13,732 nucleotides of DNA. Source: Vulcanimicrobiota bacterium. GTDB taxonomy: Bacteria; Vulcanimicrobiota; Vulcanimicrobiia; Vulcanimicrobiales; Vulcanimicrobiaceae. The notes under the pieces were generated by a model. The model worked only from the letters and a program-made list of their open reading frames with translations. It was not told the origin of the DNA and did not search any database. Position 1 is the stretch's first letter. Each line of letters begins with the position of its first letter. Shown here piece by piece: positions 5,630 to 10,440 of this stretch. The stretch lies in contig PKZK01000087.1 in assembly GCA_003133025.1 (NCBI GenBank), forward strand, positions 1 to 13,732, read 5' to 3'. The translations under genes and the position numbers were made by a program.

Positions 5630-6352
5630 ATGGCCTTGAAGGTTGTGCTGCTCTCGCATTCTCCCGACCCCGAGCGCGCCGTCGCCACCGCCGCGCGGAA
5701 CTGCTACAGCCCGCGCGACATCGAGACGATCGACGAAAACTGGACCGACGCCGAGGTCGAGAAAATGGTCGGCCGCGTGCGCGATGCCGGGCACCTCTCC
5801 ACCTTCGAGCATACGATGTTCACCTTCGGCGTCTCGGGCGTTTCGCGCGCGCTGACGCATCAACTCGTGCGCCACCGGCACATGTCGTACGAGCAGAAAA
5901 GTCAGCGCTACATCAAGGTCAAGGGCCAGTTCCCGTACATCACCCCGCCCTCGATTGCGGCGCGTCCGGAGGTGAAGGCCAAGTACGACGCGCTGATGGA
6001 GCAGATCTCCGACTTCTACCAAGACGCGCTCGAAGCGGGTACGCCGCCCGAAGATGCGCGCTTCGCCTTGCCCAATGCGGCCGAGACGCAGATCGTGATC
6101 ACCGCCAACGCGCGCGCGTTGCTCGACTTCTTCACGCTGCGCACGTGCAACAACGCGCAGTGGGAGATCCGCGAACTGGCCTTTGCGATGCTCCGCTTGG
6201 CCAAGCGCGCCGCGCCGACGCTCTTCGTACGCGCGGGCGCCACCTGCGTGCGCGGCTATTGCAACGAGCCCAACGGGCCCGAGTGCCCGCGCTACGTGCT
6301 CGTGCGCAACCCCGTGGCCGCCCGTCGCGCCGAACCGGCAAAGGCAAGCTAA
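5630..6352 (+). CDS. thyX: Flavin-dependent thymidylate synthase ThyX
   Basis: GHLSTFEH, VSRALTHQLVRHRHMSYEQKSQRY (RHRx7S motif), EDARFALP, NARALLDF, AQWEIR. Confidence 0.96.
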   Translation: MALKVVLLSHSPDPERAVATAARNCYSPRDIETIDENWTDAEVEKMVGRVRDAGHLSTFEHTMFTFGVSGVSRALTHQLVRHRHMSYEQKSQRYIKVKGQFPYITPPSIAARPEVKAKYDALMEQISDFYQDALEAGTPPEDARFALPNAAETQIVITANARALLDFFTLRTCNNAQWEIRELAFAMLRLAKRAAPTLFVRAGATCVRGYCNEPNGPECPRYVLVRNPVAARRAEPAKAS

Positions 6353-7620
6353 CGCGGCCCCTGCTGGTCGCGATCGCGTTCTGCCTCGGGCTCGCAGCGT
6401 GGGTTCCCGCCGCGGCGTCGGCTTCGGGAGCATCGCCCGCGCAGGCCTACGTCGATCGCCGCGTCACCGCGCTGCCGAGTTCGGCCCTGCTGCACGACGA
6501 TCCGCGGACGCTCATCGATCCGCGCCGGCAACAGATCGCGGGCACGCTCGTCGTCTACCGCCGCGTTCTCTTTCTCTTCTGGGCGTTCTCGCAGATCTAC
6601 GTGCTCTTCTGGGTGTGGCGCAGTGGAACGGCCGCGCGCATTCGCGACGCGCTGCGGCGCTCGGTGCGCAATCCGGTGCTCTTGCGTTTCTGCTTCGGCA
6701 CGGCGCTCGGCGCCATTGCCGGCGTCGCCTCGATTCCGGCCTCGCTCGCGCGCTATCGCGTGGCCCTGGTCTTCGATCAATCGAGCCAACCCATCGCGCA
6801 GTGGGCGCTCGACGGTCTGCTGCGGCTCACGCTCGATGCGGTCGCCGTGGGCCTCGTGGTTGCGCTCGCCCTGACGCTCGTGGAACGCACGCGGCAGTGG
6901 TGGATCTACTCGATCGTGGGGCTCTTCGCGGCGAGCATCGTGGTCGGCTGGCTCGAGCCCGTCACCATCGCGCCGCTCTTCAACAGCTACGTGCCCTTGG
7001 CTGCGACCGATCCGTTAGCGCCGCGGCTGCACGCGCTCGCGGAGAAAGCCAAGGTGCCGCGCGCGCCGTTCTACGTGGCCAACGTTTCGCGTCAAACGGA
7101 TCTGCCCAGCGCCCGCGTCCTGGGGTATGCCGGCACGGCGCGCATCGTGCTGGGCGATACGCTCTTTCGCGAATTGACGCCGGGCGAGATCGAGTTCGCG
7201 GCCGCGCAACAATTGGATTTATACCGGCACGGCGACGCGGCGCGCACCTCGTTCGTCTTCGCGTTTCTCTTCGTGCTCTCGATTGCAGCGGGCGTGCTGC
7301 TGACCGACCGGGTGCGCTTTCGCGGCGACGACGACGCGCTTTCGCGACTGGCGCTGGTGGGCGCGCTCTCGGGCCTCGCGGGGCTCGTGGCCTATCCGCT
7401 GTACAACGGCTATTCGCGGCACATCGAGCGTAAAGCCGATGTGTTCGCACTCGAATTGACCGGCGATCGCGCCTCCGCCGTGCGCGCGTTCGTGCGCGCC
7501 GCCGACACGCGTTTCGTGCCCTTCTGCACGCCGCGTGCGGTCGAGATCTACTTCTCGGCCGAACCTTCGCTGGGCACGCGCATCGCCTCGGCCACCGGGC
7601 GGCTCAACCCCTGTCGCTGA
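6349..7620 (+). CDS. M48 (Ste24/HtpX-like) membrane peptidase homolog with a degenerate zinc site
   Basis: Signal-like N-terminus and several TM segments. PLFN, SRQT, RIVLGDTL, EIEFAAAQQLDL (HExxH position), SRHIERKADVFA and EPSLGTRI (HP..RI position). Start uncertain: CTA 6349 overlapping the thyX stop, CTG 6361, or GTG 6283 inside thyX. Confidence 0.85.
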   Translation, partial: LTRPLLVAIAFCLGLAAWVPAAASASGASPAQAYVDRRVTALPSSALLHDDPRTLIDPRRQQIAGTLVVYRRVLFLFWAFSQIYVLFWVWRSGTAARIRDALRRSVRNPVLLRFCFGTALGAIAGVASIPASLARYRVALVFDQSSQPIAQWALDGLLRLTLDAVAVGLVVALALTLVERTRQWWIYSIVGLFAASIVVGWLEPVTIAPLFNSYVPLAATDPLAPRLHALAEKAKVPRAPFYVANVSRQTDLPSARVLGYAGTARIVLGDTLFRELTPGEIEFAAAQQLDLYRHGDAARTSFVFAFLFVLSIAAGVLLTDRVRFRGDDDALSRLALVGALSGLAGLVAYPLYNGYSRHIERKADVFALELTGDRASAVRAFVRAADTRFVPFCTPRAVEIYFSAEPSLGTRIASATGRLNPCR

Positions 7621-9194: not shown

Positions 9195-9802
9195 CGGGCT
9201 GTGTTGTCGTCGCCCCCGGCCTCGTTCCTGCTTGCCTCGGGCCGCCAGGCGTTGACCAGGTTCATCGCGTCGACCGGACCTCGTTCGAGCCAGCGCACGA
9301 CGCCTTCCGCCGCAACGTCGATGACCGGCCCGAGCCGTCGCTCTTCGTCGGGCGTAAACGTCGAGAGCACGTGGTCGATCGCCTCACTGCCGCTGCGGCC
9401 GATGCCCACCCGCAAGCGGGGATAGGCCGTACCGAAGTGTTCGATGATCGACTTGAGCCCGTTGTGTCCGCCCGAACTGCCGTTCTCGCGCATGCGCAGC
9501 CGTCCGAAGGGCAGGTCGAGATCGTCGACCACCACGAGCACGTCGGCCGGCTGCGTCTTCCACCAGCGCGCTATTTTGCCGAGCGGACGACCGCTGTCGT
9601 TCATGAACGACAGCGGCTTGACCAGCACCACGGAGCGCGAGGCGACGTGCGCCTGGGCCGCTTCGTCCTTGGTTTTCCACGGACCGGCGCCGAGCCGTCG
9701 CGCGACCTCGTCGACAATGCGAAACCCGACATTGTGCCGGGTTCGCTCGTACTTGGACCCTGGGTTGCCGAGGCCGGCAACGATGCGAGTGCCGCTCGCT
9801 AC
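9191..9802 (-). CDS. pth: Peptidyl-tRNA hydrolase
   Basis: The frame extends upstream of track ORF 9191..9631: RIVAGLGNPGSKYERTRHNVGF, KPLSFMNDSG, VVVDDLDLPFG, GGHNGLKSI, RLRVGIGR. Proposed start is non-canonical GTA 9802 (alternative ATC 9784). Confidence 0.96.
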   Translation of the reverse strand, partial: VASGTRIVAGLGNPGSKYERTRHNVGFRIVDEVARRLGAGPWKTKDEAAQAHVASRSVVLVKPLSFMNDSGRPLGKIARWWKTQPADVLVVVDDLDLPFGRLRMRENGSSGGHNGLKSIIEHFGTAYPRLRVGIGRSGSEAIDHVLSTFTPDEERRLGPVIDVAAEGVVRWLERGPVDAMNLVNAWRPEASRNEAGGDDNTAR

Positions 9803-10440
9803 GACGCGCTCTCCGCGCCCGCGGCTTCAGCCGCCACGGCTTCGGCGCTACCCACTGCCGTCTCGGGTTCGGCGGCGCGCAGCGGTTCGACCGAGATCAG
9901 CGTGGTCAGCGGGTCGACGTCGAGCACGAGCCCATCGGGCAGCTTGACCTCGCCGGCGGTAACGTGGCCGTGGATTTCGAGATGCGAGACGTCGATCTCG
10001 ATGCTCTCGGGAATCTTGTTCGCCGGGCCGCGGACTTGCAGCGCGTGCAGCACCACGTCGAGCACGGCGCTCTTCGACTGCACCGGGGCGGGGACGCCGA
10101 CGGTAACGATCGGCAGCGAGGCCGAGACTTGCTCGCTCGCGCCGACGCGCTGCAGGTCGACGTGCACGATGCGCCGCGTCACCGGATCGCGTTGCACTTC
10201 GCGCACGAGCGCCGTTTCGCCGGACTTGCCGTCGATCGTCAAGTTGAGGAGATGGTTCTTGCCGCCGCCGTGCTTCATCAGATCGAGGAAGGCTTTGGCG
10301 TCGAGTGCGATCGGCAGCGGCGCAGCGCCGTGTCCGAAGAGAATTGCCGGCGTGTGGCCTTCTTCGCGCAGATGTTTGGAGGCGGTGGTGCCGATGCCGT
10401 CGCGGGTGACGGCGTTGAGCGTGTCGGTTGAACTGGACAT
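9799..10440 (-). CDS. rplY: 50S ribosomal protein bL25 / general stress protein Ctc (long form)
   Basis: LREEGHTPAILFGHG, VREVQRDPVTRRIVHVDLQ, PANKIPESIEIDVSHL, Ala/Glu-rich tail; classic prs-rplY-pth order. Confidence 0.95.
   Translation of the reverse strand: MSSSTDTLNAVTRDGIGTTASKHLREEGHTPAILFGHGAAPLPIALDAKAFLDLMKHGGGKNHLLNLTIDGKSGETALVREVQRDPVTRRIVHVDLQRVGASEQVSASLPIVTVGVPAPVQSKSAVLDVVLHALQVRGPANKIPESIEIDVSHLEIHGHVTAGEVKLPDGLVLDVDPLTTLISVEPLRAAEPETAVGSAEAVAAEAAGAESAS

Follow-up and report, generated by a model that had tools for sequence, protein, structure and literature searches.

Gene organization of the locus

The window is the whole stretch of DNA that was analysed (13 732 nucleotides). 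On its minus strand the genes follow each other in the order prs (11582-10458), rplY (10440-9799), pth (9802-9191), an amino-acid-kinase-like gene and an unknown gene, prs being the upstream gene of the prs-rplY-pth cluster. rplY encodes ribosomal protein bL25/Ctc (213 aa; TIGR00731, 120 bits for a cut-off of 73) and ends in TCG TAG, with the stop TAG at 9801-9799. pth encodes a peptidyl-tRNA hydrolase recognized by Pfam and TIGR00447, of 203 aa when counted from a GTA codon (9802-9800). Its TGA overlaps the ATG of the next gene (9194-8508, ATGA overlap). The latter gave a weak match to amino-acid kinase families, with the N-terminal part absent (TIGR00761, 57 bits for a cut-off of 151), and is possibly a degenerate kinase.

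No promoter-like site was found between 7400 and 11900, no minus-strand terminator-like site at the rplY-pth junction, and no Rfam match in the window. In RNA runs X15 and X16 there is coverage of prs and rplY, both in part, and none of pth; the RNA contigs do not cover the junction and no inference was drawn from them. On the plus strand, an M48 peptidase-like gene (6349-7620) follows thyX. It has a CTA over the thyX TAA (6349-6352) and then a signal-peptide-like stretch; after the thyX stop, no canonical codon occurs before 6601, and on the upstream side the nearest is a GTG located 70 nt inside thyX. This gene likely carries a second non-canonical start in the window.

The open frame of pth

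Pth is normally an essential enzyme. The initial annotation had claimed that pth must begin at a non-canonical codon, most likely GTA 9802, and reading of the minus strand gave the same sequence: an in-frame TGA (9829-9827) closes the frame 27 nt upstream of GTA and is followed by AGC CGC GGG CGC GGA GAG CGC GTC GTA GCG AGC GGC ACT CGC ATC GTT GCC GGC CTC GGC AAC. In-frame reading confirmed that no ATG, GTG, TTG or CTG occurs between this TGA and GTG 9631-9629. The Pfam Pth model (PF01195) is covered over positions 1-183 by a match starting at 9784, and TIGR00447 scores 183 bits for a cut-off of 100. A start at 9631 would thus cut off GLGNPG (9775-9758) and TRHN (9742-9731), as had been annotated; the His of TRHN is the catalytic residue. 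With a full-length match over the curated cut-off and both motifs, the product belongs to the Pth family, provided that translation begins upstream of 9784. Public gene calls start at GTG 9631 and give a truncated 146-aa product on 17 contigs, from which the catalytic N-terminus is missing.

Survey of the rplY-pth junction in the class

A pth match was obtained in 106 genomes of the class (families f1-f3, including the genome under study, G000), and the junction was read in 105; G036, whose pth is split over contig ends, was left out. For the other classes of the phylum, 31 of 57 genomes were read (32 were fetched; G070 had no anchor). A canonical start was considered present when ATG, GTG or TTG lay at least 9 nt before GLGN.

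No canonical start precedes the conserved N-terminus in 78/105 class genomes (76/103 without the unpublished genomes G018, with ATA, and G020, with CTA) versus 1/31 in the other classes, related genomes not being independent, so that p-values at the genome level are overstated; GLGN is immediately preceded by a GTG in ten of the 78, uncounted under the 9-nt rule. The sole exception outside the class is G092, in which ATGs are present 54 and 66 nt upstream. Among pth loci from other phyla, none of 67 was without a canonical start. Counted by genus, 36 of the 52 class genera are wholly without a canonical start (four are mixed and 12 canonical) versus 1/21 genera of the other classes. This comparison strongly supports the non-canonical initiation initially proposed for pth.

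The frame relation of G000 is shared by 39 of the 78 non-canonical genomes; in 28, pth is in frame with rplY, in nine it is in +1 and two could not be placed. For the 102 placed class junctions, frames -1, 0 and +1 number 48, 43 and 11. In the 39 genomes, the rplY stop is overlapped by ATA (24), GTA (12), CTA (2) or CTG (1), never TTA, and the overlaps are ATAG (18), GTAG (7), ATAA (6), GTAA (5), CTAG (1), CTAA (1) and CTGA (1). An A precedes the stop in 24/38 TAA/TAG overlap cases, compared with 88/584 genome-wide in G000 and 10/37 in the other frames. The K-L-V of G024, G075, G108 and G118 is immediately preceded by the overlapping ATA or GTA, at the place that Met usually takes. Among the 37 genomes in frames 0 and +1, a CTG occurs in the spacer just after the rplY stop, 28 times in the pth frame and once out of frame; it is in the pth frame in 11/11 genera having one. 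A conserved ACG takes its place in genus g29.

GLGN is invariant in the 78 non-canonical genomes, with varied synonymous codons, a TRHN-type motif is present in all 78, and an R or K is found four codons before GLGN in 69. Since synonymous changes are seen at the R/K, I/L, V/I and GLGN codons and the residues themselves are retained, this region must be translated.

A tree was built from Pth and bL25 of the 103 genomes of the class that contain both. The class forms one clade (support 0.995) with a non-canonical root state by parsimony. Nine start types were distinguished, with at least 41 changes of type on the 103 leaves (mean of 62 in shuffles). Between canonical and non-canonical states, 19 changes were counted (mean of 23 and minimum of 18 in shuffles), canonical starts being therefore dispersed over the tree. 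No single near-cognate codon is conserved for pth among the relatives, and five class genomes (G097, G112, G125, G130 and G162) have no near-cognate candidate under the rule of the survey. The alignment of the relatives' junctions, which had been suggested with the initial annotation, thus revealed a class-wide lack of canonical start with several codons. Judged from these junctions, this lack is a lineage trait of the class, the codon of which is not fixed.

Two further observations were made on these junctions. At L157 (G112), L189 (G125), L186 (G162) and L147 (G130), neither a canonical nor a one-mismatch codon follows the rplY stop, and three of these loci (G112, G125 and G162) carry CCG where their relatives have CTG. 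rplY ends in TAG in 72/102 class genomes, versus 330/1404 upstream stops in G000 and 10/28 in the other classes; in the closest metagenome relatives of G000 the rplY stop is mostly TAA.

The probable start codon

GTA 9802 forms a GTAG 4-nt overlap with the rplY stop and is, judged from the relatives' junctions, the best candidate for the pth start, in agreement with the first proposal. It is kept in L462 (84% identical), L036, L483, G004, G138 and G147. The codon after it is GCG in L462 and GCA, AAC, AGA, GGA or GGT in the five others. In addition, tmk of G000, G010 and G021 lacks a canonical start and has a GTA overlapping the stop of the preceding gene, which supports separately the possible use of GTA as a start. 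In E. coli, low-level initiation occurs from 46 of the 64 codons; AUA, AUC, AUU and CUG reach 1-2% of AUG in reporters and other non-canonical codons 0.1-1%, according to the available text of 10.1101/063800. GTA, two mismatches away from ATG, would fall into the weakest of these groups (0.1-1% of AUG, T7 reporter), GUA itself not being named in that text.

Initiation might instead adjoin the rplY stop at GCG (9799-9797) or at ATC (9784-9782). GCG, a further start candidate suggested by alignment, occupies the common 1-nt overlap position where the other closest relatives start, one codon downstream of GTA, with CTG, ATG, GTG or TTG. It is kept in L462, and in G112, G125 and G162 the corresponding codon is CCG instead of CTG; however, L036, L483, G004, G138 and G147 keep GTA and not GCG. 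ATC had been annotated as an alternative start. It holds as a candidate, being position 1 of the Pfam model, ATG in some relatives, and among the four near-cognates that work better in E. coli (available text of 10.1101/063800), but it is weaker than GTA: it lies 26 nt from the GGAG discussed below, a start there would lose the R/K conserved in 69 of the 78 non-canonical genomes, and the codon at this position is CTC in 38 of them. Initiation at either codon is rather unlikely, and GTA is retained as the probable start.

SD-like signals and apparent weakness of the start

A GGAG (9814-9811) inside the part of rplY that encodes the bL25 tail lies 8 nt before GTA, as annotated, and this spacing fits the 5-9 nt range. 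The 14-nt stretch upstream of GTA has a pairing energy of -6.6 kcal/mol with the anti-SD taken from relatives; the 16S 3' end was standard in 5/5 relatives, no 16S being assembled in G000. Pairing at -4.5 kcal/mol or better was used as the SD criterion, and was found for 50/72 non-canonical candidates, 2/27 canonical starts in the class and 24/30 in the other classes. This contrast is confounded, the G/A-rich bL25 tail being generally more distant from canonical codons, and is therefore partly a matter of geometry. Selection on the signal was assessed against synonymous shuffles of the final 10 codons of rplY. The signal upstream of non-canonical candidates is not above these shuffles (109/200 and 43/200 as strong). 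The position of GGAG thus stands; in strength it is equalled by 109 of 200 synonymous shuffles.

These data bear on the possibility that GTA is the start but is reached through GGAG by free 30S subunits, uncoupled from rplY termination. The pairing energy peaks 4-8 nt upstream of the candidates in both junction types, and this genome does have an SD-led near-cognate start, the ATA of infC, preceded by GAGGAG. Against this, the amino acids of the bL25 tail account for the SD-like signal, in all three frames the candidates stay close to the rplY stop, a few bases away at most, and the GGAG/GTA site lies inside a translated ribosomal protein gene. Independent entry of this kind is quite unlikely, and a start at GTA coupled to the end of rplY is preferred.

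A canonical 4-nt overlap occurs in 2/105 class pth junctions versus 410/1511 coupled pairs in G000. In eleven junctions (ATAA 6, GTAA 5), a single transition would produce ATGA or GTGA and still leave a stop. From these counts, it seems that selection keeps the weakness of the pth start rather than its codon. In the alignment of IF3 (25 sequences; five of 30 could not be extracted), only three V/I/A-type differences separate the class from the outgroup and no class-specific loss was seen. The IF3 of the class carries a C-terminal extension.

Frameshift, readthrough and assembly error

A bL25-Pth fusion could arise by -1 frameshift at the rplY stop or, in the in-frame relatives, by stop readthrough. 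Such a product would suit the distribution of frames (48 of the 102 placed class junctions in -1 and 43 in frame, only 11 in +1), the TAG that ends rplY in 72/102 class genomes and the in-frame junctions of G125, G130 and G162, from which a near-cognate codon is absent. However, three frames would require three recoding mechanisms, and the enrichment of CTG in the pth frame also holds in frame +1. Features of a programmed -1 frameshift were not found: a slippery site is present in 0/39 -1 junctions, in none of which P-site re-pairing is possible, there is no single frame relation, and no stimulatory structure was detected, the junction fold being no better than shuffles (z -0.58).

At least 10 bL25-Pth fusion entries were found among the 120 listed of 346 longer proteins, and one of them is 56% identical to the Pth of G000; but all ten entries listed are clusters of one or two sequences on one contig, and two of them, P0037 and P0039, look like products of frameshifted assemblies. 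The entry with 56% identity, P0001, is a single fusion with an Ile at the junction, in a cluster of one, on a 3.56-Mb contig; it is either a real fusion or an indel error. The listed entries do not show a fused lineage, and may be compatible with occasional real fusions. The initial annotation had already placed a frameshift fusion behind a non-canonical start; given the three frames, the lack of a slippery site and the ordinary fold, this fusion is very unlikely, and separate initiation of pth remains the preferred explanation.

The assembly and the number of pth genes had been named as points to check. The rplY-pth junction is unchanged in the contigs of six DNA-type runs from six studies: it is bridged in one piece in X1 (which may be the source sample), X3 and X13, and the pieces from X4, X9 and X6, which cover it but have ends close by, are likewise unchanged there. 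A profile search found a single pth, at this locus, and no Pth2 in G000 (genome 80% complete). One base change at 9798 would create a TAGTG overlap, and in a genome 80% complete another hydrolase gene could be unassembled, but the idea that the missing start is an assembly error, or that pth is a pseudogene replaced by another enzyme, is largely refuted by the bridging contigs without change, the single pth and the pth motifs intact in 78/78 non-canonical genomes with synonymous variation.

Candidate non-canonical starts in other genes

A self-trained gene model was used on G000 to seek coding sequence upstream of the first canonical start, and 21 chosen candidates were compared with NCBIfam and Pfam. 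The family match starts upstream of the first canonical codon in recR (L234), hisH and hisB (L230), truA (L235), rsmE (L236), tmk (L237), coaE (L238), scpA (L241), recG (L244), lspA (L245), hemD (L246) and others. The overlaps of these core-gene candidates include CTGA, ATAG, GTAG and ATTAG. In 19 of the 22 genes of a follow-up check (pth included), the open frame has no canonical codon further upstream. The model gave candidates in 48/1500 gene pairs of G000, 8/383 in two other genomes of the class and 6/403 in two genomes of other classes; the rates (about 3%, versus 2% and 1.5%) do not differ significantly (p 0.09 and 0.60). Against this background of a few percent at coupled junctions, pth is singled out by its 74%.

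In four ortholog sets picked as non-canonical in G000, such starts were counted in 9/50 cases in the class versus 1/36 in the other classes (p 0.04), the recR part having been read by eye and rows without motif match dropped (recR 9, coaE 1, hisH 8). A generally relaxed start selection across the class was considered and not retained: the gene-pair rates are not significantly different, and the ortholog sets (9/50 versus 1/36) give it weak support at best. In G000 genes after TAA or TAG stops, no overall excess of the overlap frame was found (9/36 versus 16/48 and 3/23).

Candidate CTGA, GTAA and ATAA overlaps without canonical starts were also seen at loci of other classes (L410, L411, L418 of G081 and L396 of G092). 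Non-canonical overlap junctions may thus form a general, under-annotated background. The ATA start of infC in G000 (L222, C90) has counterparts in the class, which uses ATA, ATC or ATT for this gene.

Proposed mechanism

The preferred reading, to which a probability of about 0.6 is assigned, is that pth is translated by reinitiation at GTA 9802, coupled to the termination of rplY and held weak by selection. The ribosome that ends rplY at TAG would stay on the mRNA and restart one base back, at the overlapping GTA. fMet-tRNA would be loaded at this codon, possibly with the help of the SD-like bL25 tail, so that initiation would depend on rplY termination. The predicted product begins with fMet-Ala-Ser-Gly-Thr-Arg, and full-length Pth would be made at a small fraction of the bL25 rate. 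Weak initiation would let a catalytic enzyme follow a ribosomal protein gene without being produced in ribosomal-level amounts, which is what selection is supposed to act on. In E. coli, reinitiation needs the initiator tRNA and IF2, is lowered by an excess of IF3 and is partly protected by an SD, according to the available text of PMC2268962.

A more tentative proposal, itself improbable, is that the rplY-pth junction acts as a sensor, Pth output tracking the fidelity of reinitiation and any weak codon beside the stop sufficing. Split, stalled ribosomes would leave free 30S subunits, IF3 would be titrated and Pth would rise when peptidyl-tRNA needs to be cleared. If true, initiation fidelity and ribosome quality control would be linked across the class by a feedback that works through two-mismatch codons such as GUA and UAG/UAA 4-nt overlaps.

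Comparison with known systems

One of the nearest likenesses to coupled reinitiation at GTA in pth is infC, a gene of translation housekeeping whose output is set by a non-canonical start; in pth such an effect on output is proposed from sequence comparison. The ATT start of infC is needed for autogenous control (available text of PMC2830850), whereas for pth any feedback loop is a proposal only. infC keeps ATH codons (ATA, ATC, ATT) behind its own SD. By contrast, pth of the class sits on the upstream stop and switches among ATA, GTA, CTA, CTG, ACG, ATC and SD-poor canonical codons. The available text of PMC2830850 also describes rpsL (CTG) and dnaA (ATC) of Deinococcus as lineage-wide non-canonical starts of core genes that were missed by gene callers. 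Those cases are supported by N-terminal proteomics and one codon is kept in each, whereas the evidence on pth is comparative and its codon is not conserved.

The 4-nt overlap (ATGA/GTGA) is given as the commonest gene overlap in the available text of PMC10666635. Termination-reinitiation overlaps of this type and the pth junction have the same geometry, the downstream frame opening one base before the upstream stop. That text describes the 4-nt overlap with ATGA and GTGA only, whereas the pth overlaps are mostly ATAG, GTAG, ATAA and GTAA.

A GUA initiation codon under IF3 control is said to be known from E. coli recJ, in which Haggerty and Lovett in 1997 reportedly found the GUA start mutant to be suppressed by an IF3 mutation. 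The recJ codon is a laboratory mutation, whereas the GTA of pth would be a natural start, kept across genera.

In the literature searched, most of it outside subscription journals, no report was found of a non-canonical pth start or of start codons in this phylum. Non-canonical starts as such are known; what is new is the repeated switching of codons and the overlap of ATA or GTA with TAG and TAA stops.

Implications

Public gene calls truncated like that of pth are likely elsewhere in the class too, as well as in further core genes of G000. If coupled reinitiation at a weak codon is right, GUA would join the natural start codons and 4-nt coupling would extend to UAG and UAA stops. The weakness of the start site would then be selected while its codon turns over, and the class would offer a natural allelic series of the start choice made by post-termination ribosomes.
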